Positions 18,671-31,305 of a stretch of DNA of 32,000 bases are shown here, piece after piece. The first letter of the stretch is position 1. Each line of letters begins with the position of its first letter. The DNA is from Phycisphaera mikurensis NBRC 102666 (GTDB lineage: Bacteria; Planctomycetota; Phycisphaerae; Phycisphaerales; Phycisphaeraceae): contig NC_017080.1 in assembly GCF_000284115.1 (NCBI RefSeq), positions 750,001-782,000 on the forward strand, given 5' to 3'. Below the pieces are notes generated by a model. That model saw nothing but the letters and a program-made list of their open reading frames with translations, had not been told where the DNA came from and ran no database searches. A program made the translations under genes and the position numbers.

Positions 18671-18722
18671 TTCGGGCGCGGCCGAGATCGAGGCCGAAAT
18701 CGGCGAAATCGGTGGCTGTCAC

Positions 18723-21700
18723 CTTTTCCGCTCCGCCCGCGTGGAGCGGGCGACTGGTCCACCATGAGCGGGTTGCCATGGTGCAGGGTGTTTCGATCCA
18801 CGCCCGCGTGGAGCGGGCGACACGAAGCGCTGCGAGAGCTGACGGCTGGCCAGAAGTTTCGATCCACGCCCGCGTGGAGCGGGCGACTCCGTCCGGCCGC
18901 ACCTCCTCCGGCATCGAAGCGTTTCGATCCACGCCCGCGTGGAGCGGGCGACCCGCCGCCGCCGCAAGCGACCCGCTGCCTGCAGGTTTCGATCCACGCC
19001 CGCGTGGAGCGGGCGACGGCCTTGTCGACGCCGATCGTCTTGTGCTCGCTGTTTCGATCCACGCCCGCGTGGAGCGGGCGACGGCAGGGTCCGCCGCGGA
19101 AGGACCTCGACCCGGCGTTTCGATCCACGCCCGCGTGGAGCGGGCGACGCTGCTGCCGCCGCCGGTGCTGGCCCCGGTGCTGGCGTTTCGATCCACGCCC
19201 GCGTGGAGCGGGCGACCGGGGATCATGTCGATCAGCGGCGCGATAACCGGTTTCGATCCACGCCCGCGTGGAGCGGGCGACACGTCTACGTGGAGCGTTG
19301 CCCGCGAGGCTTTGCGTTTCGATCCACGCCCGCGTGGAGCGGGCGACCGGAATCCCGCTTCTCTTTGTCGCGTTGCTTATGTTTCGATCCACGCCCGCGT
19401 GGAGCGGGCGACTTGAGCAACGGGAAGCGCTCTTGCATCCGTGAGTGTTTCGATCCACGCCCGCGTGGAGCGGGCGACCGGTCGATCTTGATGCTGTGCA
19501 TCGGGGGCTCCTGTTTCGATCCACGCCCGCGTGGAGCGGGCGACGGAAGCCGGCGTCCGCCTCGACCTCGAAACAGTTGTTTCGATCCACGCCCGCGTGG
19601 AGCGGGCGACGTTCGAGGCGGTCGAGGCGTTTCTCTCGGAGATCGTTTCGATCTACGCCCGCGTGGAGCGGGCGACGGCAGCCAAGAAACCGGGTCGTAG
19701 GTGAGGGTCGCGTTTCGATCCACGCCCGCGTGGAGCGGGCGACCCTCAGTACCAGGCACCATCGGCCGGCTCAGACTGTTTCGATCCACGCCCGCGTGGA
19801 GCGGGCGACCTCGGATCGCGTCGAAGTCCTTGCGCGAGTCGATGTTTCGATCCACGCCCGCGTGGAGCGGGCGACCGCGGTCCACGCCGCTCGCCGCGAG
19901 CGCCTTCGTGTTTCGATCCACGCCCGCGTGGAGCGGGCGACCAACTCCGGGAAGCGTCGTTTGACTACGTACCCGTTTCGATCCACGCCCGCGTGGAGCG
20001 GGCGACGCGGCGGCGCCGAGTGCCGACCCGGCCGGCGTCGTTTCGATCCACGCCCGCGTGGAGCGGGCGACCGGTCGATGTGAGGAGAAGAAGGGGCTGG
20101 AGCGGTTTCGATCCACGCCCGCGTGGAGCGGGCGACCACCAGCGGCGGTCTAGGGACCCGAGACGCCGAGTTTCGATCCACGCCCGCGTGGAGCGGGCGA
20201 CGGGGGGTGCGACCGACCCGCGGTCGATGTGAGGAGTTTCGATCCACGCCCGCGTGGAGCGGGCGACCCCCGTGGATCGTCCGCGTCTCGGCGTTCACCG
20301 AGTTTCGATCCACGCCCGCGTGGAGCGGGCGAAGAACATCGTGATCCCGTCGACCACCCGCGACGGGTTTCGATCCACGCCCGCGTGGAGCGGGCGACCC
20401 TCGGGGATCGTCGCCGCCGCGTCCGTCGTGGTGTTTCGATCCACGCCCGCGTGGAGCGGGCGACGCTCATCAGCTTGAGCTGCGCGAACTCCATCTCGTT
20501 GTTTCGATCCACGCCCGCGTGGAGCGGGCGACGCCCCAGCGGCCGCCACCAAGTGTCGCCCCAGGCGTTTCGATCCACGCCCGCGTGGAGCGGGCGACCT
20601 GCTCACCCCCGCGGCGGAACGCTCCGCGGATGTTTCGATCCACGCCCGCGTGGAGCGGGCGACGTGGGCAGGTACGTCGGCGTCTCGCCCGGGCGGGCGT
20701 TTCGATCCACGCCCGCGTGGAGCGGGCGACCAGGGCGTGGGCGCCGGCCATGTCGTCGGCGATGTTTCGATCCACGCCCGCGTGGAGCGGGCGACGAGCT
20801 GCTGGGGCGGCCTCTGCGGTCGGTGGCCGAGTTTCGATCCACGCCCGCGTGGAGCGGGCGACATCAGACCGTCGGCGAGGTGCTCGCCCCCCAGCTGGTT
20901 TCGATCCACGCCCGCGTGGAGCGGGCGACCCGAGGCGCCGGTCGAGTTCGGCGGTCCAGACGGTTTCGATCCACGCCCGCGTGGAGCGGGCGACCCCCAG
21001 GGGCCGCGGCTGGGCGTGTTCACGCGGTGGTTTCGATCCACGCCCGCGTGGAGCGGGCGACGGATGCCGGGCAGGTCGCCGCCGCCGGGCTCGGTGTTTC
21101 GATCCACGCCCGCGTGGAGCGGGCGACCTGCTCACCCCCGCGGCGGAACGCCCCGCGGATGTTTCGATCCACGCCCGCGTGGAGCGGGCGACCGAACTCG
21201 AACGCCGCCGACTCGTCCGCGCTCGTGTTTCGATCCACGCCCGCGTGGAGCGGGCGACCCGTGCGGGTGCGGGGGGAGGGCGTGACGTCAGAGTTTCGAT
21301 CCACGCCCGCGTGGAGCGGGCGACCCCCGCCCGCGGCTCCAACGGTCGCCGGCGGCTTGTTTCGATCCACGCCCGCGTGGAGCGGGCGACGCGTCTGCGG
21401 GAGGTGCGGCCCGGCGGGCCGCTGTTTCGATCCACGCCCGCGTGGAGCGGGCGACCACGCGTGGGAGATGCGTGAGCGCGAGGTTGACGGTTTCGATCCA
21501 CGCCCGCGTGGAGCGGGCGACCCCGCCCCGGACCGGCCATGAGCCCCGGGGTTGGGTTTCGATCCACGCCCGCGTGGAGCGGGCGACCTCCCGGACCAGC
21601 TGGAGCACGGAACCAGCATCGTGTTTCGATCCACGCCCGCGTGGAGCGGGCGACGGGCCGAGCGCTGGTGGACCACGATCTACAGGGCGTTTCGATCCAC

Positions 21701-22772
21701 GCCCGCGTGGAGCGGGCGACCCGGCCCAAGGGCCAGTGAGCGGGGGACCGCTTGTTTCGATCCACGCCCGCGTGGAGCGGGCGACGGCCCGGATGGGCGA
21801 CTTCCTGCCCCGCCTGCGGTTTCGATCCACGCCCGCGTGGAGCGGGCGACGCCACGGTCCGCGGAACCGGCCGATCGGTGGACATGTTTCGATCCACGCC
21901 CGCGTGGAGCGGGCGACCCCCGCCCGCGGCTACACCGGTCGCCGGCGGCTTGTTTCGATCCACGCCCGCGTGGAGCGGGCGACCAGTACCAGGCACCATC
22001 GGCCGGCTCAGAGACTGTTTCGATCCACGCCCGCGTGGAGCGGGCGACGGGGGCCACGATGGCGCCGGAGCGCCGGAGAGAGTTTCGATCCACGCCCGCG
22101 TGGAGCGGGCGACCCGGGCGCGTAACTGGATCCGTCGCGGAAAACGTTTCGATCCACGCCCGCGTGGAGCGGGCGACAGACCAACCCGTAGTCGCTCGCG
22201 GCCTCGCTGGAGTTTCGATCCACGCCCGCGTGGAGCGGGCGACGCCCATGCGTCCAGGTCGTCGTCGTCCGGGACCGGTTTCGATCCACGCCCGCGTGGA
22301 GCGGGCGACGAGGGGCCATCGTCTTCCGCGCCGCCATCGTCAGTTTCGATCCACGCCCGCGTGGAGCGGGCGACCCTCTTGCTCTCGACAAGGCTCTCGA
22401 CGCCGCCGAGTTTCGATCCACGCCCGCGTGGAGCGGGCGACGTGATCGCGTGCCATTCCTCGCTCAACCTGCGGGTTTCGATCCACGCCCGCGTGGAGCG
22501 GGCGACGGCTGTAGGTGCATCCCACCGCCCACGCCGACGCGTTTCGATCCACGCCCGCGTGGAGCGGGCGACGCGCATCTCGTACCAGTCGCCGTTCGTC
22601 ACCCCGAAGTTTCGATCCACGCCCGCGTGGAGCGGGCGACGGTATGCGACCTTCCGGCCGCCGCGTGCCGGACAGTTTCGATCCACGCCCGCGTGGAGCG
22701 GGCGACAGACCAACCCGTAGTCGCTCGCGGCCTCGCTGGAGTTTCGATCCACGCCCGCGTGGAGCGGGCGAC
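18723..22772 (-). CRISPR. Type I-C CRISPR array, 62 repeats / 61 spacers
   Basis: - **Repeat:** the 32-nt repeat is GTTTCGATCCACGCCCGCGTGGAGCGGGCGAC on plus. On minus it reads GTCGCCCGCTCCACGCGGGCGTGGATCGAAAC, with a 7-bp hairpin and an 11-nt TGGATCGAAAC handle. The ...ATCGAAAC end is typical of I-C.
- **Spacers:** 32-36 nt, hand-enumerated.
- **Polarity:** the repeat at 18723-18754 is degenerate (7 mismatches), marking the leader-distal end. The leader and cas2 abut the 22772 end. Confidence 0.97.
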
Positions 22773-22972
22773 GGCTCCATCCTAAGCGGTGGCTCAGGCG
22801 GAGTTTGAGGACGCGTTTCCGCGAACCTCGGTGCCCGCGCGGCCGGAGTCGAGCCGGCGGCGGGGGCGAGGGGACTCTTTGGCTGTCAGAGAGCGGCTCA
22901 GGGGGCTTCGCGAACCCACCCGGGTGCGGGTGCGCGCTGCGGGTTCGCGGAGGGAGGGGGCGGGCCTCGGAA
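22773..22972 (-). promoter_or_regulatory. CRISPR leader (cas2 stop to first repeat)
   Basis: 200 bp of non-coding sequence between cas2 and the intact, leader-proximal repeat R61. It contains a 9-bp inverted repeat, CGCGAACCC (22909-22917) / GGGTTCGCG (22941-22949). No clear -35/-10 was found by eye. Confidence 0.6.
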
Positions 22973-23263
22973 TCAGACGATGAGGGGGCCGTTGAGGTCG
23001 ACGGCGGCCTTGGCGCCGACGTGCTCGACGCGGCGCTGCCAGTTGGCGCCGAGAAAGTAGTAGCGGAGGCTGTCGACTTTCGGGTCGATGATCTTCTCCA
23101 ACCGATCCTTCAGCTCCACCCACTCGGAGGGGTCGACTTCGCACTCGAAGACCGAGTACTGCACGCGCTGGCCGCGGTTCAGGCAGCACTTGGCGACGCG
23201 GCGGAGGCGGCGGACGCCGGCCCTCGTGCTCGTCGCCACGTCGTAGGTCACGAGCACCATCAT
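22973..23263 (-). CDS. cas2: CRISPR-associated endoribonuclease Cas2
   Basis: The C-terminal 96 aa of track ORF 22973..24175: MMVLVTYDVATSTRAGVRRLRRVAKCCLNRGQRVQYSVFECEV... This is the canonical Cas2 ferredoxin-fold start. Confidence 0.92.
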   Translation of the reverse strand: MMVLVTYDVATSTRAGVRRLRRVAKCCLNRGQRVQYSVFECEVDPSEWVELKDRLEKIIDPKVDSLRYYFLGANWQRRVEHVGAKAAVDLNGPLIV

Positions 23264-23301: not shown

Positions 23302-24351
23302 TCAGCGCCAGAGGAAGTCGGGGTAGGCGTCGTGGTCGCCGCGGAGGTGCCGGGCGAGCAGGCGGGCCTGGACGTGGGGCACGAGGCCCAGCTCGATCTT
23401 CTCGCCGATGAACGGGTGCATCAACTCGTCCCGCTTCCGCTCCTGGTAGGCGGTGAGCGCGGTGCGCCGGCCGGCCTCGGTGAGGAAGACGGCGCCCGAG
23501 GCGTGCGGCTCGAAGGAGCCGGCTTTGACCTGGCCGCGGTTGATGAGCGACAGCGTCAGCCGGTCGGCGAGCACGGGCCGCAGCGACTCCATCAGGTCCA
23601 GCGCGAGCGACGGCCGGCCGGGGCGGTCGCGGTGCAGGAAGCCGACGGCGGCGTCGAGCCCGGCGGCTTCGCAGGCGGAGCGGCAGTCGTGGGCGAGCAG
23701 CGTGTAGAGGAAGGACAGCAGGGCGTTGGTGCGGTTCAGCGGCGGGCGGCGGGAGCGCTTCTCGAAGCGGAAGGCGTCGCCGCCGGCCCGGATCAGGCCG
23801 TCGAAGGCGCGGAAGTAGGAGGCGCCGCTCTCGCCCTCGACGCCGCGGAGCCGGTCGAGCGAGGTGGCGGTCATGGCGAGGCGGGCGTCGTCGGCCATCC
23901 GCTGCGCGGTGGCCGCGGGGTCGGTCGGCCGCCCGGCGTCGGGCGTCGGATCTGCGGACGGGTGGTCGCGGGCGGCCCGCAGCAGCACGGTCCGCGTGTT
24001 GGCGATTTTGGCGGCGACGATCGGCCGGGCGATGAGCAGCGACGCTTCCTCCGAGTCCGCCCGCCGGTACTGCTCCCGCCGCAGCAGCACGTTCCCGGGG
24101 CTGAAGCCCTGGACCGCGGCGAGGAAGCGGCCGCGGCGGTCGAGCATGGAGAAGCGGACGCCGGCTCTCGCGCACGCCCCTTGCAGGAAGGGGCTGGCGG
24201 AGACCTGGCCGAAGGTCACGACGCCGTCGAGCTGGTGCAGCGGCACGCGGAGCGCGGTCTTCTTCTCGATGCGGACGACCACGGCGTCGCCCTCTTTGCG
24301 GAGGTACGCCCCCTGGGTCTGCACGAACAGCGTATTCAGGAGGCGCTTCAC
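23302..24351 (-). CDS. cas1: CRISPR-associated integrase Cas1 (type I-C)
   Basis: 349 aa from GTG 24351 ([26 protein letters not shown]...). Cas1 motifs are present ([11 protein letters not shown], [23 protein letters not shown]). The GTG overlaps the cas4 stop (GTGA). Confidence 0.92.
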
Positions 24352-25052
24352 GCGGAGCCCGCCTTCAGGCTCCGGGCCAGCTCCCGGTCGAAGCGGGCGG
24401 CGGCGGAGCCGTCGCGGCCACCCTGCTTGGGCATGCACACGCGGATGAGCGAGCAGCGGTCGCACTTCGCGCTCTCGTACACCGCGGCGGGCGTGCGGCC
24501 CGATCCGAGCAGTTCGTGCAACCGGGCGGCGGTCGCGGCGGTGAGCGTGCGGAGGCGCAGATCGAAGACGACCGGCTCGCGCCGGCGAACCTTCCCGTAG
24601 AAGAGGTGGCCGGAGGCGATCTCCAGCCCGAGCATCTCCTCCAGGCACAGCGCCTGGGCGCACAGCTGCACGCGGTCGGCCTGGTGCGCCTTGGGCTTGC
24701 CCCGCTTGTACTCCACCGGGCGGACCGCCCCCGGAGCGGCAGTGGCTCCGGAACCCTCGGCGGGGTCGTCGAACTCCACCACGTCGGCCTGGCCGATGAG
24801 CCCGTGCTCGAAGGAGCGGAGCGGCAGCCCGCGGGTGGTGCGTCGGCCGGGTCCGCCGTCTCGGCCGGGCCGGTGCTCCTTGGCTGTGTCGTCGTGCGCC
24901 TTCTCGTGCAGCACGCGGCCCTCGGCGGTGAGGCGGTTCTCCTCCCACTCCTGCTCGTTGTGGATGAGCGCGCACTGGCGGGGGCAGAAGAAGAGGTGCT
25001 GGAGGGCGGAGATGGGCCGGAGGTCGGCTTCGGCGAAGGAGGTGCTTGCCAT
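24348..25052 (-). CDS. cas4: CRISPR-associated exonuclease Cas4 (RecB-like, Fe-S cluster)
   Basis: 234 aa. N-terminal Cys ([10 protein letters not shown]), a C-terminal [10 protein letters not shown] cluster, and a [11 protein letters not shown] nuclease motif. Confidence 0.9.
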
Positions 25053-25070
25053 CCCGGAGTCACGCAGCTA

Positions 25071-25106
25071 CGGTAGCAGCATGCTGATACCAGCCAGTAA
25101 AGTGAA
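25071..25106 (-). promoter_or_regulatory. Predicted Cascade docking site: TTC PAM plus partial protospacer for the orphan crRNA-like element
   Basis: The minus strand reads 5'-TTC (25106-25104) then ACTTTACTGGC (25103-25093). The pseudo-spacer starts ACTTTGCTGGC, so 10/11 match with the mismatch at position 6, and 20/33 match overall. PAM and seed lie within the 17-nt spacer of a weak minus-strand promoter candidate, TTGGCT (25115-25110) / TGGTAT (25092-25087), 35 nt or more upstream of the cas4 ATG. The PAM-distal end of the site also covers a weak plus-strand candidate -10 (TACGGT, 25069-25074) and the start of the small ORF. Confidence 0.45.
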
Positions 25107-25311
25107 AGAAGCCAACGACCTTGACCCCGCTCTCCTGGGAGCCTTCCGAGAGATGGGAGTTGGAGTCGAGACCATCGTTCATGACGTGAAAGCGTCACAC
25201 ACACTGTCGGATCGGGTTGCCGCTCGGCTCGGGGGAATCCACCTCCCGGTGGACCTGCTGATTGAGAGGCTCCTCGATCTCAATTCTCGCGGCTTTCTCC
25301 GAGGTAGTTAA
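25081..25311 (+). CDS. Hypothetical 76-aa ORF antisense to the cas operon, in the cas7-cas4 gap (coding status uncertain)
   Basis: ATG 25081 to TAA 25311: MLIPASKVKEANDLDPALLGAFREMGVGVETIVHDVKASHTLSDRVAARLGGIHLPVDLLIERLLDLNSRGFLRGS. I counted GC3 at about 60%, which appears much lower than the strongly G/C-ending codons of neighbouring genes. I recognise no family. It ends 3 nt before the orphan repeat. Confidence 0.25.
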   Translation: MLIPASKVKEANDLDPALLGAFREMGVGVETIVHDVKASHTLSDRVAARLGGIHLPVDLLIERLLDLNSRGFLRGS

Positions 25312-25314
25312 GAG

Positions 25315-25372
25315 GTCGCCCGAGGGCGTGGATTGAAATACTTTGCTGGCGAGACGCAGCAAGATCCGGTCT
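25315..25372 (+). ncRNA. Orphan hairpin-shortened CRISPR repeat (25315-25339) plus spacer-like segment (25340-25372): candidate CreA/CreR-like crRNA-resembling regulator
   Basis: GTCGCCCGAGGGCGTGGATTGAAAT versus the array repeat GTCGCCCGCTCCACGCGGGCGTGGATCGAAAC. The 5' GTCGCC is shared and the stem is reduced to CGCC-CGAG-GGCG. The handle TGGATTGAAAT matches 9 of 11 positions. It lies on the strand opposite the array and cas genes. The downstream 33 nt has the PAM-flanked seed match at 25106-25071. Confidence 0.55.
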
Positions 25373-25395
25373 TCGGCATCTCGCTGGAGGCCGGC

Positions 25396-26298
25396 TTACT
25401 CGGCAACCCATCGCTCCACGCTGACGCCCTCGGGCAGGTCGGCCTCGTCGACCGTGAGCTCGAAGTCCGCGAAGCGGCGGGCGGGCTCGGCGGCGTTGGG
25501 GTCTCTCCGCTTCGCCTCCACGCGGCGGAAGAGCTGGTCAGCCCGCGCGTTGCCCAGGCGGTGCTCGTGGCGGAAGGCGATGCAGGCCCGCGGGGCCATC
25601 GTGCCGCGGGCGGCGGAGCGGTCGTGCTCGAACATCTGGTCGAGGGCACGCTTGAAGAGGTTGAGGTCGTCTTCGCTGAAGCCGGTCTGCTGGGCGAGCG
25701 GGGCGTTGACGAAGCCGTGGACGCGGTAGAGGGCGTAGGGCACGGTGAACTTGCGGCCCATGGTGCGGTTGTCACCGTCTTGAGCGGCCGACTCCTTCTC
25801 GGTGGTGACGGCGCAGCGGGTGACGGCGTGCTCGGCGGGCACGATGGGCTCCAGGCTCCGGGCGATGCCCAGCTGCACGGGGCCGCGGACCTGGCCGCAG
25901 TTGACGCCGGTGGTCATGACGGCCCCGAAGGTGCGGATGTCGTAGAAGTTCTTGCACATCCACGCGGTGAGCTCGCGGTCCTTGGCCGCCTTCTCGTCGC
26001 CCTTGTCCTTCCGCTTCTTGGCGTCGACCGAAACGTCAAGTGCCTTGTAAGCCCGCTCGTGCTGCTGGTTGAGGATCGCCTTCTCCCGCACGTAGATCTC
26101 GTGCGGCGGCTCACCCTCGTGAACCAGCTGCACGTAGTTGCGGACCTTCCGCTTGAGGCAGACGTCGGTGACGAGGCCGTGGCCGGTCTCGGGGTCGACG
26201 CGCGGCAGGTTCCCGGCGTCGGGGTCGCCGTTGGGGTTGCCGTCGGTGACGTCGAAGAAGTAGGCGAAGTCGTAGCGGTGGGCGAGGGGTTCAGGCAT
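25396..26298 (-). CDS. cas7: Type I-C Cascade backbone subunit Cas7c (Csd2)
   Basis: ATG 26298 ([55 protein letters not shown]), the highly conserved Csd2 N-terminus. The start overlaps the cas8c end by 8 nt (ATGCCTGA). Confidence 0.93.
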
Positions 26299-28192
26299 AA
26301 GTGGCGGCTCCGGAAGGGGCGGTGGTGGTTTCGGTGCCGGCGGCGTCTCGATCGCCGGCTTCGGTGTCAAGCCCCCCGGGAACACGCTTGCGGAAGAAGT
26401 CCTGCGTCTGGTGGTGATAGCCGATCGCGAAGAGGCCCTGGTCCTCCATCGCGAGGTGGCGGGGGAAGCCGTCGAGGCGGTCGAAGACCTCGCCGATCTG
26501 CTTCTCCAGCCAGACGGCGCGGCCGGGACTCTCGCGGCGGAGCTTCCCGGCGTGGTTGCCGTTGAGCCGCGAGAGGCGGGGGAAGACCGCCGCGGGCGTG
26601 GAGGAGGCGGTGGCGAAGAAGCTGTCCCGGATCGTCCGGTTCAGGCCCTTGCCCTGAGCTTCCTGTTGGGCACGCTCGTACAGGGCGAAGAGACGCCCGA
26701 GGACGTAGGGCGGGTCGCTGCGGTCGGGATCGAGAGCCACGGGGATCTCCGGCTTGTGGGGGAAGAGGCGGTTGAGCCAGGCCCGCAGGATCGCGGCGCG
26801 GTTGGCGTTGACGACGGGATCGGCCCGCATCCGCCGGAGCACGCCGGCGGCGAGGTTCTGCGGGTAGGGAACACCGGTGAGGACCGCGCGGAGGAGGTCG
26901 CCCTCCAACCGCGGCGGAACGTCCTTGGCGTCGCGGACGGTCTCGCGGAGCATCGCCTGGACGCTGAGCGGGCGGTCGTCGTCGCGGCGGCCGACGATCT
27001 CCAATCCGCGGACGTGCGCAGCGAGGTGCTCCGCGAACGCTCCAGTGGTGGAACGGAGGAAGAAGCGGATGCTGATCCTTGCCGCGTTGGGGGCGAGGCC
27101 GAGGAGGAAGAAGCGGTGGCCCGGCTCCTCGAGTTCCGCGGACTGAGCGGCCGGGAGGCCCTGACGCAGCCGGTGGAGGAAGCCGGAGACGGCGGTCCGC
27201 GTCTCGTGGGCGGTGGGGGAGTCGTCGATGAAGCCGCTCTTGTTTGCCGCGTAGAGGAAGTCGTTCACCAACCCCGTTGCGAGCGGGGCGATCGGGTTGG
27301 ACGCTCGCTCCGACCACAGCACGCAGGTGGTGTCGCCGAGGCGGATGCGGCTGCGTTCGTCGCCGAGCAGGTGGTTGAGCGCAGTGCAGTAGGCGAAGGC
27401 GGCGGCCTCGGAGGTCGGGGCATTGCGACCGTCGGTGTGACCTTGCGAGAGATAAGCAGAATCGTTGAAGGAGACGATCAGGCCGCCGGAGGACTGGCCG
27501 CCGAGCACGCCCTTGATCTTGGGCTCGTGCAAGCGAGCGAGCGGGCCGGTGCGGCCGGTGACCAAGCACATGCCGGCGGGCGCCGCGTCGTCGCCGGCTG
27601 CGGCGTCGGCTGGCGCCTCCAGCGTGGCCCGCCAAAACGCGTCGACGGCGGGCCGCTCGTGGACGTCTTGCCGCTCGCCGCTGAGGCGGAAGACGCCGAA
27701 GCCGGGGCCGTCGAGGTTCTCGCGGCCGGGCGTGTCCGGGAGGCGGGCCGGATCCCACGCTTCCAGGAAGCGGCAGACGGCGGCGTAGCCCGCATCGTCG
27801 ATGGCCTCCTCCAGCGCCAGGTGCCGCTCCCGCAGGGCGGCGAAGCTCTCGGCGGCCCGGGCGACCTTCTTCTCGTCTTCGGGATCGGCGGGCAGGCCCA
27901 GCAGGTACGCGGGGTTGTCCCAGAGGAAGCAGGGGTTCAGGCCCGAGCCGGACGGCTTCGCCTGCCCCGGCACGATCCGCTCCGCCGGCCGCGGCTTTCC
28001 CTTGCCGCCGCTCTCCTGCATGCGGGACTCGATCTGCACGAGTGAGCCGTCGGGCTCGAGCACCACGGCGAAGCTGACCTTCTGCTGGCTGTAGCCGTAG
28101 CGGGCGATGCGCGGGGCGGTGTCGCTGCCGTGGGCGCGTTCCTCCTGGGCGACGAGGCGGTCGTAGTGCTCGGCGAGGGCCTGGAGGATCAT
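26291..28192 (-). CDS. cas8c: Type I-C Cascade large subunit Cas8c (Csd1)
   Basis: 633 aa with the [14 protein letters not shown] start typical of Csd1. It sits between cas5c and cas7c. The ATG overlaps the cas5 stop (ATGA). Confidence 0.9.
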
Positions 28193-28878
28193 GCGACCAC
28201 CTCCGGGAGCGAGCCCTCGCCACCCGTGTCAACGGCCGCAGCGGGGTGCATCGGGGGCACGTCGATCACGCCGTCGACCATCTTCGCCCGGAAGAAGCGG
28301 GCGGCGCGGTCACGCGTGTAGTCGAAGTCGAGCATCGTCCAGCCGAGGTCGATCTCGCCTTGCAGCTCCTCCGGGCACGCGGGCGGGGCCGCGGGATCGG
28401 CCGGCTCGAAGTCGGCGAGGAACTCGCGGCAGCCCAGGTACGGGTGTTGGAAGCACTGCCCTTTCTTCGCCCGGCGGTTGAACTGGTCGAGGTGCTTGCC
28501 GGGGGTGCGGGGGCCCGAGAGGATGTCGAAGCGGGCCTGGATGACGTATGCCACGTCACGCAGCAGCGTGGCCGCCCGTTGCTGCCGCTCGTCCTCGACG
28601 GTGATCCCCAGCGTTCCGCGACCGGCTTTCATCGCCGACCTCGCGTTGGTGGCGGAGGCCTTTGCGCCGACTTCGTTGCGGCGGAGCGTGGTCCAGCGGA
28701 TCGGCTTCAGCACGCGGATCCGCTCGATCACCCACCGGATCTCCGGCTTCCAGTAGATCGCCTCCAGCACGCCGCGGGCGGCGGAGGGGGTGATGACGTC
28801 GTAGCTGACCCGCTCGACCTTCATCTCGGGCCGGGTGAAGCACGCGAGGTCGCCGGAGACTTGAAGATAAATGGACAT
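28189..28878 (-). CDS. cas5: Type I-C Cas5c (Cas5d) pre-crRNA endoribonuclease / Cascade subunit
   Basis: 229 aa. MSIYLQVSGDLACFTRPEMKVERVSYDVITPSAARGVLEAIYWKPEIRW is the canonical Cas5c N-terminus. No cas6 is present, as expected for I-C. Confidence 0.92.
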   Translation of the reverse strand: MSIYLQVSGDLACFTRPEMKVERVSYDVITPSAARGVLEAIYWKPEIRWVIERIRVLKPIRWTTLRRNEVGAKASATNARSAMKAGRGTLGITVEDERQQRAATLLRDVAYVIQARFDILSGPRTPGKHLDQFNRRAKKGQCFQHPYLGCREFLADFEPADPAAPPACPEELQGEIDLGWTMLDFDYTRDRAARFFRAKMVDGVIDVPPMHPAAAVDTGGEGSLPEVVA

Positions 28879-28989: not shown

Positions 28990-31305
28990 TCAGCAAACCA
29001 GCCCGCCCGGGGCGTTCAGCACGTCGTCCCGCAGGCCCAGCGCCTCGTCGTACGCCTCGGGCCGGAGCAGGTAGAAGGCCGGCTCCTCGCCCTCGGGGGT
29101 GAAGCCGGGCCGGATCACGGCGTTCTCGTCGAGCCGGTCGCGCTGGTTGTGGTAGACCGCGACAGTGTGCCGCTGGGCCTCGCGGAGGAGGTCGAAGCGT
29201 GGCTCCTCCGCCTCGGTCAATGCCGCAACGATCCGCCGGCCCTCCTCGCTGTAAGGCACGACGACCGGCGTGGTGGCGCTGTCGATCCAGCGGAAGCGGG
29301 AGGCGGCCTCGCGGAAGTTGTGGTGGTGCGCATCGGTCCCGTCCCGCTGGTCTGGCAGGAAGCCGCCGAAGCAGGGCATCACGTCGTGGGTGTCCCAGGG
29401 CGTCACCCCCGGCCCGGGGTTCTTCCAGAGGTGCTCCTCGAAGTAGGCGCGGATCGCCTCCGGCTGCAGCGGGTCGGGGTGGGCGGAGAGCAGCCCCCGG
29501 GCGATTTCCACGCCGCTCTTGACGCCTGGAGGCGGAGCGTGATCGGTCTCGAAGACGACGACGCGGCCAAGACCGCTCAGCCGGCCCTCGCGGTTGGCCC
29601 GGCCGGCGGCCTGGGCGACGGAGTCGAAGCCGGCGAGGGCCCGGTACACGACGGGGAAGTCGACGTCGACGCCGGCCTCCACCACCGTGGTGGAGATCAC
29701 CAGGCAGGGCTCGCCCGCACGCAGCCGCCGCTTCACCTCCGCGACGCGGTCGCTGCGGTGGGCCGGGCACATCGCGGCGGAGAGGTGCAGGGCATCGGGT
29801 CGACGCTCCCGCAGCCGCTCCAGCACGGCGGCGGCGTGTCTGCGGGCGTTGACGATGCACAGGGCCGCGGGCTCGCGGGCGAGGCGGTCGGCGAGTTCCT
29901 CGTCGGTGAGGTGTCCGGCGGGCTCGACCGCCACCCGCCGCATCGCCTCGAAGAGCCGCTCGGGCTCGGGAACGATGCGGGTGATCCGCTCGGGCGGGAT
30001 GCCGATGGCGAAGCCCTCCCGCCGGGCAACGGCGGGCTGCGTGGCGGTGCAGAGAACGACGGTGCAGCCGAAGTTGCGGACGAGCTCATCGAGTGCGGCG
30101 AGCACCGGCCGCATCAGGCCGGGCGGGATCGCTTGCGCCTCGTCGAGGATCAGGATGGCGTTGGCGAGCCGGTGCAGCTTGCGGCAGGGCGTGCCGTGGC
30201 TGGCGAACAGCGACTCGAAGAGCTGCACGTTGGTGGTGACGACCAGCGGGGCCGCCCAGTTCTCGGTGGCGAGCTGGGCGGCGAAAGACACGCCCCCGGG
30301 GTCGAGGCTGCTGTGGTGCTCGAGCACGACGGGTTCGCCACGCCGCGCCTCCAGGTCGCGGAAAACCTCCCGGTACCTCTCGGCGGTCTGCTCGATGATG
30401 CTTGTGAACGGCAGGGCGCAGACGATGCGCCGCTGGCCGGTGTGGCGGGCGTGGTCGAGCGCGAAACGGAGCGAGGCGAGCGTCTTGCCGCCGCCGGTGG
30501 GCACCTCCAACGTGAACCAGCCGGCGCCCTTCTTCGCGGCCGCGCGGCACGCGGCCAGCACGCCGGCCCGGGCGGCATCGACGGGCGACGGATCGCCCGT
30601 GCGGCCCGCCAGCAGCTCCGCCATCGACGCATCGAGCGCCGCGGACATCGCTTCCGCGTCGAGGTCCGGTCGCGCGGGCCGCCGGGCGTGCCCCGCGGGG
30701 TCGCTGAACCGCTGCGTGCAGAGCCGGTCGGCGTCGACCAGGCAGCTGAAGAGCATCCGTGTGAGGAAGGCGGTGGTGTGGCCGCCGAGCTCCTCCGCTC
30801 CGGGCCAGCGGATCGGTCCGACGGCCGCGGCTTGCGCGTCGTCCCAGGGGCTTTCGAAGCCGGGATCGTGCGGCTCGATGCGCTTGCGCTGCGGATCGAG
30901 CCGAGCCTCCAGGTCGCGGTCGCGAGCGGCGTCGGTCTGCCAGTCGGGCAGGTGCCCGTGGTGGCCGGCGACCGCGGCGGCGAGGCACGGCCCCAGCACG
31001 GGGCCGAGTTGATCCGCGGCGTAGCGCGCCCCGGCCGTGGCGTGGTCGACGCGTGCCCGGGGCCGCTGTGCCTCGCCCTCGGCTGCCGCCTCGTCGACCC
31101 CCGCTCCCAGCACCTTTTCCTGGAAGGCGAAGGTGGCTTTGCCGAGATCGTGCCAACGCCCGAGCGCATGCGCGAGCGGGCCGCACCCGAACGCTTCGCC
31201 GAATGCCGAAGCCGCGTCCGCGACTTCGCGGAGGTGGGTCGCGAGCGGTTCCCAGTGCTCGCGGCCGGCGGGGTGGGTGTGCGCGTAGAACATGCACCGC
31301 AGCAT
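28990..31305 (-). CDS. cas3: Cas3 HD nuclease / SF2 helicase
   Basis: 771 aa. N-terminal HD domain (YAHTHP...HDLGKATFAFQ). Helicase motifs include Walker A-like PTGGGKT, the DEAQ box (ILILDEAQ) and VVEAGVDVDF. An alternative start is ATG 31293. Confidence 0.93.
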   Translation of the reverse strand: MLRCMFYAHTHPAGREHWEPLATHLREVADAASAFGEAFGCGPLAHALGRWHDLGKATFAFQEKVLGAGVDEAAAEGEAQRPRARVDHATAGARYAADQLGPVLGPCLAAAVAGHHGHLPDWQTDAARDRDLEARLDPQRKRIEPHDPGFESPWDDAQAAAVGPIRWPGAEELGGHTTAFLTRMLFSCLVDADRLCTQRFSDPAGHARRPARPDLDAEAMSAALDASMAELLAGRTGDPSPVDAARAGVLAACRAAAKKGAGWFTLEVPTGGGKTLASLRFALDHARHTGQRRIVCALPFTSIIEQTAERYREVFRDLEARRGEPVVLEHHSSLDPGGVSFAAQLATENWAAPLVVTTNVQLFESLFASHGTPCRKLHRLANAILILDEAQAIPPGLMRPVLAALDELVRNFGCTVVLCTATQPAVARREGFAIGIPPERITRIVPEPERLFEAMRRVAVEPAGHLTDEELADRLAREPAALCIVNARRHAAAVLERLRERRPDALHLSAAMCPAHRSDRVAEVKRRLRAGEPCLVISTTVVEAGVDVDFPVVYRALAGFDSVAQAAGRANREGRLSGLGRVVVFETDHAPPPGVKSGVEIARGLLSAHPDPLQPEAIRAYFEEHLWKNPGPGVTPWDTHDVMPCFGGFLPDQRDGTDAHHHNFREAASRFRWIDSATTPVVVPYSEEGRRIVAALTEAEEPRFDLLREAQRHTVAVYHNQRDRLDENAVIRPGFTPEGEEPAFYLLRPEAYDEALGLRDDVLNAPGGLVC

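Follow-up and report, generated by a model that had tools for sequence, protein, structure and literature searches.

The 32-kb stretch of Phycisphaera mikurensis NBRC 102666 analyzed here (NC_017080.1, positions 750,001 to 782,000; hereafter the window, to whose numbering all coordinates refer) carries a complete type I-C CRISPR-Cas system on its minus strand and, on the plus strand of the gap between cas7 and cas4, a small module built around an orphan, degenerate copy of the CRISPR repeat. To judge from its sequence, this repeat probably yields a functional CRISPR RNA (crRNA)-like guide which puts the host's own Cascade on the promoter of the adjacent small gene. All cas genes lie on the minus strand. 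The effector genes, cas3 (28990-31305), cas5c (28189-28878), cas8c (26291-28192) and cas7 (csd2, 25396-26385; TIGR02589, 1.6e-118; 300 aa in NCBI-derived gene calls), are separated by a gap of 343 bp (25053-25395) from cas4 (24348-25052; TIGR00372, 9e-32), the first gene of the adaptation block, which continues with cas1 (23302-24351) and cas2 (22973-23263). The leader (22774-22972) and the cognate array (18790-22773; 61 repeats, 60 spacers), a source of competing crRNAs, are on the minus strand as well. Cas5c, Cas8c and Cas7 are presumably the trans-acting proteins by which the crRNA-like RNA is processed and loaded. The gene calls for the source assembly (GCA_014207395.1, contig JACHEL010000006.1, part of which is identical to the window) have no gene on record in the gap, whose G+C content is 59-60% as against about 72% in its surroundings. 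The module converges with cas7, the stop codon of which lies 1 nt past the 3' hairpin of the module, and its small open reading frame (ORF) diverges from cas4. The nearest Cas7 proteins (72-77% identity) come from Phycisphaeraceae metagenome-assembled genomes (MAGs) and one metagenome contig.

The degenerate repeat, PsiR, is the 25-nt sequence GTCGCCCGAGGGCGTGGATTGAAAT (25315-25339, plus strand). It starts with GT, continues with a 4-bp hairpin (CGCC-CGAG-GGCG, 25317-25328) and ends in an 11-nt handle, TGGATTGAAAT (25329-25339). The array repeat in its transcribed orientation, GTCGCCCGCTCCACGCGGGCGTGGATCGAAAC, is 32 nt long and forms a hairpin of 7 bp closed by a 5-nt loop: PsiR is this repeat minus 7 nt from the top of the hairpin, and folding places it in the same register with the same 11-nt single-stranded tail. 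The handle is identical to that of the array at 9 of 11 positions, to the GGATTGAAAC ending of related I-C arrays at 9 of 10, and to the commonest form of that ending, TGGATTGAAAC, at 10 of 11. The array repeats of the window end in GGATCGAAAC, those of related I-C arrays with a captured repeat end all in GGATTGAAAC, and PsiR retains the common T at the position where the window's own array differs from its relatives; this points either to a change of the array repeat later than the origin of the module or to a separate acquisition of the module. When the window was searched with the 15-nt repeat end GGCGTGGATCGAAAC, allowing up to two mismatches, two non-array sites were found where about 0.13 chance matches are expected, and no orphan repeat appeared in the cas3-cas5c gap. 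The site other than PsiR, GGCGTCGACCGAAAC at 26020-26034 (plus strand, two mismatches), lies inside cas7 in antisense orientation, has no hairpin and is probably a chance match. The best Rfam match in the region, CRISPR-DR9, scores 17.4 bits, below threshold.

The pseudo-spacer, PsiS (ACTTTGCTGGCGAGACGCAGCAAGATCCGGTCT; 25340-25372, plus strand), follows PsiR directly. Its seed (25340-25350), ACTTTGCTGGC, pairs at positions 1-5 and 7-11 with a protospacer-like target on the minus strand, ACTTTACTGGCTGGTATCAGCATGCTGCTACCG (25103-25071), flanked by the trinucleotide 5'-TTC-3' as its protospacer-adjacent motif (PAM; 25106-25104) and reading TTC-ACTTTaCTGGC at its PAM-proximal end; the distal part of PsiS is non-complementary. 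This target overlaps the small ORF's predicted -10 element, transcription start and codons 1-8, and the cas4 ATG is 19 nt downstream of it. The pattern TTC plus ACTTTNCTGGC occurs once in the 32 kb (25093-25106), even with two mismatches allowed, and the same scan detected no second target, e.g., at the cas3 or cas5c promoter. With shuffled seeds, a 10/10 match at a TTC site in the gap has P = 1.5e-4. The co-occurrence of a repeat-like element and a seed match is not a product of chance.

Both the repeat and the seed match had been reported in a preliminary description of the locus made from the letters alone, and most of it has held up. Its coordinates and sequence statements are correct on re-reading, folding bears out the repeat hairpin trimmed from 7 bp and a 5-nt loop to 4 bp and a CGAG loop with the tail kept, the TTC-flanked match at positions 1-5 and 7-11 is there, and the chance estimate of about 1e-4 is close to ours. 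The overall identity of 20/33 was also counted rightly (positions 1-5, 7-11, 14, 18-22, 24, 26, 28 and 32), yet PAM-distal identity is 10/21, which is at chance (P = 0.41), so that the figure adds nothing beyond the seed. The PAM had been read as confirmed by the locus's own spacers. Protospacers within the window do not supply it, since no full protospacer of any array spacer exists there; instead, two array spacers (20072-20104 and 20203-20235) share 15 nt of source DNA and, once joined, place TTC 5' of one protospacer, in support of the assignment. TTC is also the published I-C PAM (bioRxiv 10.1101/2024.12.27.630466). The remark that no second repeat follows PsiS is true: no repeat-like sequence was found 3' of it. 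The conserved hairpin which stands there instead had been overlooked.

This hairpin (25366-25394, plus strand) has a 12-bp stem and an AUCUC loop (25378-25382), with z = -3.2 for 25329-25400, and presumably defines the end of an RNA of about 50-54 nt that begins at 25329. The small ORF between the target and PsiR had likewise been passed over. It runs on the plus strand from ATG 25081 to TAA 25311, with PsiR beginning 3 nt past the stop, and encodes a 76-aa protein, MLIPASKVKEANDLDPALLGAFREMGVGVETIVHDVKASHTLSDRVAARLGGIHLPVDLLIERLLDLNSRGFLRGS, the presumed Cascade-repressed cargo. Its coding status can be judged against a 532-nt metagenome contig (L161) that spans the whole gap at about 75-96% identity: substitutions by codon position 1/2/3 number 17/7/33, and of the changes in codons 1-7 three are at third positions and one replaces Ile by Val. 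Because of this pattern, the ORF can be taken as coding and under purifying selection, with its start at 25081; GTG 25102 was considered as the start codon, and ATG 25081 is favored on account of the synonymous pattern in codons 1-7. The protein from L161 (P0001) is 68% identical to that of the window. At 0.61, as against 0.92 in cas4 and cas7, the GC3 of the ORF suggests that the gene is foreign or young. The predicted promoter (25046-25074, plus strand) consists of a -35 element TTGCCA (25046-25051), a 17-nt spacer and a -10 element TACGGT (25069-25074) placed 6 nt from the ATG, so that the mRNA would be leaderless; L161 has the same geometry (TTGCCA-17-TACCTT-6-ATG), although the overlap of the -35 with the cas4 start codon means that its conservation is not independent evidence. 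A terminator-like minus-strand site at 25128-25108 is within the chance expectation of 0.5.

Scans with Cas7 gave at least 160 I-C loci, which were searched for orphan hairpin-plus-handle sequences. Three independent lineages share one layout in the cas7-cas4 gap, always in antisense orientation to the cas genes: the window with L161; L003, a Phycisphaeraceae MAG; and the trio L084, L162 and L163. The order is shared throughout: promoter and target, small ORF, repeat-like hairpin with an 11-nt handle, pseudo-spacer, and a 3' hairpin or terminator. The ORF encodes 72 residues in L003 (P0002) and 71 in the L084-type loci (P0003), within a size range of 71-86 residues for these small proteins, and its stop codon precedes PsiR by 0-7 nt in all four loci. 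The proteins of the window and L003 are probably distant homologs by alignment score (Smith-Waterman 45 vs. 22.7 +/- 4.1 for shuffled sequences, P = 5e-4); BLASTP among the three types returned nothing. All PsiRs (GTCGCCCGAGGGCGTGGATTGAAAC in L161, GTCGCCTGATGCTTCAGGCGTGGATTGAAAC in L003, GTCGCTGGCGCTGTCCGGCGTGGATTGAAAC in the L084-type loci) form a hairpin with an 11-nt tail in the same register; the three types share a 5'-terminal GTCGC and a 3'-terminal GCGTGGATTGAAA(C/T), and their upper stems differ yet are internally complementary. The 3' hairpin is kept in L161, where a double change turns one C-G pair into U-A and several other changes create or remove wobble pairs, L003 has an intrinsic terminator after PsiS, and the L084-type loci have a terminator hairpin in that place.

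The pseudo-spacers differ between lineages, and each of them is matched by a separate TTC-flanked seed site in front of the ORF of its locus; outside the window such matches were found in three loci, two of which have different seed sequences. In L161 the PAM and seed site are identical to those of the window. In L003 the seed ATGTTGTTGCG faces the target TTC-ATGTTaTTGta, exactly over the second of two strong antisense promoters (TTGACT-17-TATACT and TTAACC-16-TACAAT, the latter inside the protospacer); in L162 the seed CCTCGTGCATT faces TTC-CCTCGaTGATT, with a TTGACT hexamer just upstream. Relative to the window, L003 has changes at seed positions 2, 3 and 7 in guide and target alike. Shuffled-seed P-values for the four loci are 1.5e-4, 5e-5, 8e-3 and 9e-3, the first being that of the window and the last two those of L003 and L162. 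The distal similarity between PsiS and target in L003 is broken by 1-nt indels (P = 6e-4); the guide of L003 appears to be derived from its own target and to be able, now, to pair in the seed only. Between the window and L161, PsiR is identical at 24/25 positions, the seed at 11/12, the distal PsiS at 12/21 and the ORF at 75%; PsiR and seed together (35/37) stand out from the 75% background with a binomial P of about 0.002. A survey of cas7-cas4 gaps for repeat-like elements and seed-target covariation, which the preliminary description had proposed as a check, has thus turned up the module in two further lineages with lineage-specific seed-target pairs.

These data bear on whether the element is a non-functional relic, i.e., a decayed unit of repeat and spacer, or a scar of recombination, that a rearrangement of the array or the cas genes left behind and whose seed match is fortuitous. 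The truncation of PsiR (25 of 32 nt), a handle that is off at two of 11 positions, the distal pseudo-spacer identity at chance and the sub-threshold Rfam score would all suit such a scar. Yet PsiR and the seed are far better conserved than their surroundings, differing but complementary stems preserve the hairpin in all three lineages, each of which retains a TTC-flanked seed match with a sequence of its own, none of them departs from the order ORF, stop, PsiR, PsiS, hairpin, and the PAM-plus-seed pattern is unique in 32 kb. With conservation so selective, hairpins compensated and seed-target pairs specific to each lineage, decay to a scar is disfavored, and we regard it as very improbable.

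The favored alternative is a guide that represses its neighbor and itself. For this course of events we infer transcription, co-transcription, Cas5c processing, Cascade binding, repression and cargo activity. The promoter abutting the cas4 start codon would produce a single plus-strand transcript comprising the ORF, PsiR, PsiS and the 3' hairpin. Inspection by eye of the 3' end of the ORF in the window-type, L003 and L084-type loci gave nothing convincing or conserved as a separate guide promoter, and co-transcription of ORF and guide is assumed on that ground. Cas5c would cut at the base of the repeat hairpin, before 25329, leaving the 11-nt 5' handle on the RNA of about 50-54 nt, which would be loaded into the I-C Cascade; that Cas5c and Cascade accept PsiR is assumed. 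The guide would then read the TTC PAM and pair through positions 1-5 and 7-11 at the module's own promoter and start region (25071-25106). With pairing ending past the seed, no full R-loop would form and Cas3 would not be licensed. Bound Cascade would repress the small gene together with its own guide, a form of autoregulation, and the small protein would be made when Cascade is lost, inhibited by an anti-CRISPR or titrated.

The kind of element is known: crRNA-like RNAs guide Cascade to repress cargo in cas operons, and I-C single-repeat forms are among them. The closest parallel is with the I-C solitary repeat units (SRUs) of Neisseria and other hosts, whose cargo includes CRISIS, Nezha and Gabija. 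An SRU comes directly after its cargo and is aimed at a TTC site in front of that cargo; Cas5c cuts its single hairpin to give RNAs of 48-50 nt that carry an 11-nt handle and have their 3' end inside the loop of a hairpin; the pseudo-spacer PAM is 5'-TTC or TTA; and pairing is interrupted at positions 6 and 12 and in the distal part, with a 5- to 60-fold repression of the promoter determined experimentally in Neisseria (bioRxiv 10.1101/2024.12.27.630466). The window module is alike in being of type I-C with a single hairpin and an 11-nt handle, in its TTC PAM and partial pairing with mismatches at 6 and 12, and in having the unit after the cargo and the target right in front of it. Judged by sequence features, PsiR offers the hairpin and the conserved 11-nt handle of an SRU, the 3' hairpin takes the place of a second repeat, and the complementarity is partial and seed-centered beside a TTC PAM; the predicted RNA of about 50-54 nt compares with the measured 48-50 nt. 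Adjacency of the unit to the end of the cargo is seen in four loci; the placement of the target at the promoter refers to a predicted promoter in the window and to a scanned promoter inside the protospacer in L003.

The module occupies the cas7-cas4 slot and published SRUs the cas3-cas5c slot, the only one scanned in the published I-C survey (bioRxiv 10.1101/2024.12.27.630466). Unlike published SRUs, the module is convergent with and antisense to the cas operon; its cargo is one orphan 76-aa protein instead of a multi-domain defense system; its target covers the -10, start site and first codons, whereas published SRU targets lie 37-46 bp upstream of the transcription start; and its host, high in G+C and with a Cas7 nearest to Phycisphaeraceae, is unlike the published SRU hosts.

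Similar logic operates in other subtypes. CrePA of Acinetobacter type I-F systems couples a CRISPR-repressed proteinic toxin to CreA (bioRxiv 10.1101/2024.01.05.574328). As proposed for the window module, it has a small protein cargo inside a cas operon, the promoter of which is hit by a seed-matching crRNA-like RNA at a correct PAM, and the role proposed for it, addiction and protection by an anti-anti-CRISPR effect, is the one proposed here; unlike the module, it belongs to type I-F, uses a CC PAM, has two PsiRs and sits in the cas3-csy1 slot. CreP is a 103-aa KilAC-domain protein, whereas the window protein has no KilAC or other Pfam match; as a CrePA-type KilAC toxin it does not qualify, with no match in Pfam, PHROG or PADLOC. 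CreTA modules are RNA toxin-antitoxin pairs of haloarchaeal type I-B systems (PMC8501985; Li et al. 2021 Science, cited there), and in the CreTA of H. hubeiense the guide pairs at positions 1-5 and 7-11 and the toxin and creA share one autoregulated promoter (PMC8501985). The same pairing occurs in the window at a promoter in a cas locus, and a shared autoregulated promoter would be a further likeness. CreT acts as an RNA, either non-coding or with a mini-ORF, and sequesters a rare tRNA, in contrast to a cargo protein under purifying selection. A tRNA-sequestering CreT was rejected here in view of the 76-codon coding ORF (17/7/33), the lone AUA codon of which, at position 3, is not conserved in L161. 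CreA, finally, is Cas6-processed and usually has two PsiRs, and CreTA is of type I-B, as opposed to the single PsiR and type I-C of the window; the commonest creA form, with two degenerate repeats, is not seen here, a hairpin taking the place of the second repeat. Single-PsiR creA genes exist, e.g., in H. hispanica (PMC8501985).

CreR elements, known from types I-B, I-E and V-A, share with the module a degenerate mini-CRISPR guide, partial complementarity and a PAM; CreA-like elements were noted in I-C loci as well, in a manual survey (bioRxiv 10.1101/2023.03.10.532045). CreR targets an effector cas promoter and has no cargo, whereas the sole PAM-plus-seed site of the window fronts the small ORF and cas4. 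Assignment to CreR was considered and dropped: the site is not upstream of cas3, cas5c or cas8c, and there is a coding cargo. Regulation most likely falls on the 76-aa ORF, which makes the element CreTA/CrePA/CRISIS-like rather than CreR-like. Of the CreA/CreR-like regulator originally proposed, a Cascade guide directed to a PAM and seed without cleavage is supported by comparative data from three lineages; repression of a cargo is more likely than autorepression of cas genes after the manner of CreR. Nor are all the features then listed as distinctive peculiar to this locus: antisense orphan repeats are common in related I-C loci, and the single-repeat I-C form has already been described in Neisseria.

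The position of the target next to cas4 raises a different possibility, i.e., CreR-like control of the adaptation genes, as the main or a second function: Cascade bound 19 bp upstream of the cas4 ATG would block a cas4-cas1-cas2 promoter or read-through from cas7 and thereby throttle spacer acquisition. The target is within about 15-85 bp upstream of cas4 in every lineage (19 nt in the window, 14 nt in L162, about 47 nt in L003), and L003 and L084 have strong hairpins right after cas7, so that cas4 would need its own promoter in the gap if these terminate cas7 transcripts. In Haloarcula, CreA/CreR derepression raised the expression of cas1, cas2 and cas4 and the uptake of self-spacers (bioRxiv 10.1101/2023.03.10.532045). 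Proximity to cas4, however, follows automatically from a cargo promoter that abuts cas4, scans detected no minus-strand promoter in the gap, and the strand to which the guide pairs, the plus strand, serves as template when cas4 is transcribed. In type I CRISPR interference, pairing to the template strand is the orientation that blocks elongation more weakly. The conserved coding ORF between target and guide would stay unexplained, and the described CreR elements target effector-gene promoters rather than adaptation genes (bioRxiv 10.1101/2023.03.10.532045). We consider adaptation control rather improbable, and more doubtful still that the module is a gate which sets adaptation by Cascade status, instead of or beside an addiction toxin. 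If it were such a gate, abundant Cascade would hold down cas4-cas1-cas2 together with a small, possibly winged-helix-like regulator, its depletion or inhibition would release both, and spacer acquisition would be coupled to the state of the interference machinery.

What a Cascade-repressed cargo would do is a separate matter: by analogy, a toxin or defense effector is the likeliest identity, at about even odds. A toxin or an abortive-infection protein is suggested by the parallels with CreTA, CrePA and CRISIS and by type II toxin-antitoxin pairs found in the same slot of related loci; such a protein would tie the cell to a working Cascade. The searches were silent on function. The 76-aa protein had no matches in Pfam, PADLOC or PHROGs, a sequence profile search of the PDB found nothing, and HMMER against 1.84 billion representatives returned P0001 as its only homolog; both the handle-plus-seed pattern and the protein profile were absent from the viral contigs searched. 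AlphaFold2 models it as three helices, with moderate confidence (pLDDT 68), and Foldseek comparison of the small-protein models with PDB and BFVD gave no significant match.

Alternatively, the cargo could be a small DNA-binding regulator that relays Cascade occupancy to other genes, e.g., the cas genes or the array leader, which seems unlikely on present data. The AlphaFold2 model of P0003, the L084-type protein, has a helix, helix-turn-helix, short-strand layout, its top PDB matches are mostly winged-helix proteins (Fur/PerR, Rio2, KAT6A, SAMD1; non-significant), and a C-terminal motif, 'RLLxDLxxxG', in the proteins of the window, L161 and L003 looks, in our reading, like a recognition helix that leads into a wing. 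Against this, none of the fold matches is significant (E > 1, probability < 0.3), confidence in the models is moderate (pLDDT 68-70), the model of the window protein has no winged-helix matches, and the Pfam search gave no helix-turn-helix match.

Several observations weigh against the favored account of a guide and a Cascade-repressed cargo. The PsiR stem is merely 4 bp long and the handle departs from that of the array at two of 11 positions. The window ORF promoter is weak by consensus, and a strict sigma-70 scan did not report it. The 3' hairpin of the window starts already at PsiS position 27, as against about position 33-35 in L003 and L084. Only three lineages among about 160 loci carry the module; the seed matches of L003 and L162 are weaker (8/10), and the L162 target is on the opposite strand relative to the ORF. 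The L084-type protein has no sequence similarity to the window type by BLASTP or Smith-Waterman shuffling. Finally, the cargo bears no toxin, defense or other family or fold signature detectable in the searches run, and is a soluble-looking helical protein unlike a typical small membrane toxin.

The slot itself is informative. I-C operons had been said to run cas7 directly into cas4, which is not the case in general: the gap is 60 bp or shorter in just 58 of 145 related loci and longer than 250 bp in 68 (long gaps are found, e.g., in L015, L034, L031, L012 and L046). ParE with Unstab_antitox pairs occupy the slot in about 12 related I-C loci, HicA with a partner ORF lacking a Pfam match in about five, and ORF6N-domain genes in seven; further contents are ORFs without assignment. 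Gaps with toxin-antitoxin pairs, ORF6N genes or unassigned ORFs contained no orphan repeat in any locus. The cas7-cas4 junction looks like a hot spot for cargo insertion, and junctions filled in this way fit the idea that cas operons recruit addiction modules.

Orphan repeats occur elsewhere in the surveyed loci as well, at least nine of which have them at the expected cas3-cas5c position. Orphan units of a hairpin plus GGATTGAAAC lie about 2.5-3.5 kb or more upstream of cas7, about the expected cas3-cas5c region, mostly antisense to the cas genes; the upstream units are L015:3380(-), L020:3494(+), L031:3382(-), L033:3323(-), L037:3325(-), L074:3402(-), L075:3251(-), L079:3343(-), L131:3511(+), L152:2536(-), L006:1176(-) and L036:1030(-), and are presumably known CreR- or CRISIS-type elements. 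In the cas7-cas4 junction, sense-strand repeat-like units are present in a Binatia MAG (L061:6890-6935, plus strand; TAGCACCCAGTCCAAAGGTTGGGAGGGGATTGAAAT; gap 29 bp) and a Micavibrio MAG (L076, plus strand; ending in CAGTGGATTGAAAC; gap 248 bp), and may be further variants of junction regulation. The array of the window has features of its own: a degenerate terminal repeat (ending in TTTTCCGCTCCGCCCGCGTGGAGCGGGCGAC) at the trailer end (18711-18754) is consistent with a leader on the cas2 side. A repeat-spacer-repeat block is duplicated at 100% identity (22146-22244 and 22675-22773), making spacer 1 equal to spacer 9 from the leader, 20564-20663 and 21093-21192 are 98% identical, and the spacers at 21325-21358 and 21918-21951 are nearly identical; these internal duplications suggest within-array recombination or repeated acquisition from one target.

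For specialists the mechanism itself is unsurprising; what is new is the slot between cas7 and cas4, the module's convergent orientation, its orphan small protein and the host lineage. crRNA-like self-regulation would thus reach a new I-C slot and a host far from the Neisseria, Acinetobacter and haloarchaeal models. The orphan family of 71-86-residue proteins supplies candidate Cascade-repressed toxins or defense effectors, and modules of this type can be used as sensors of anti-CRISPR activity.

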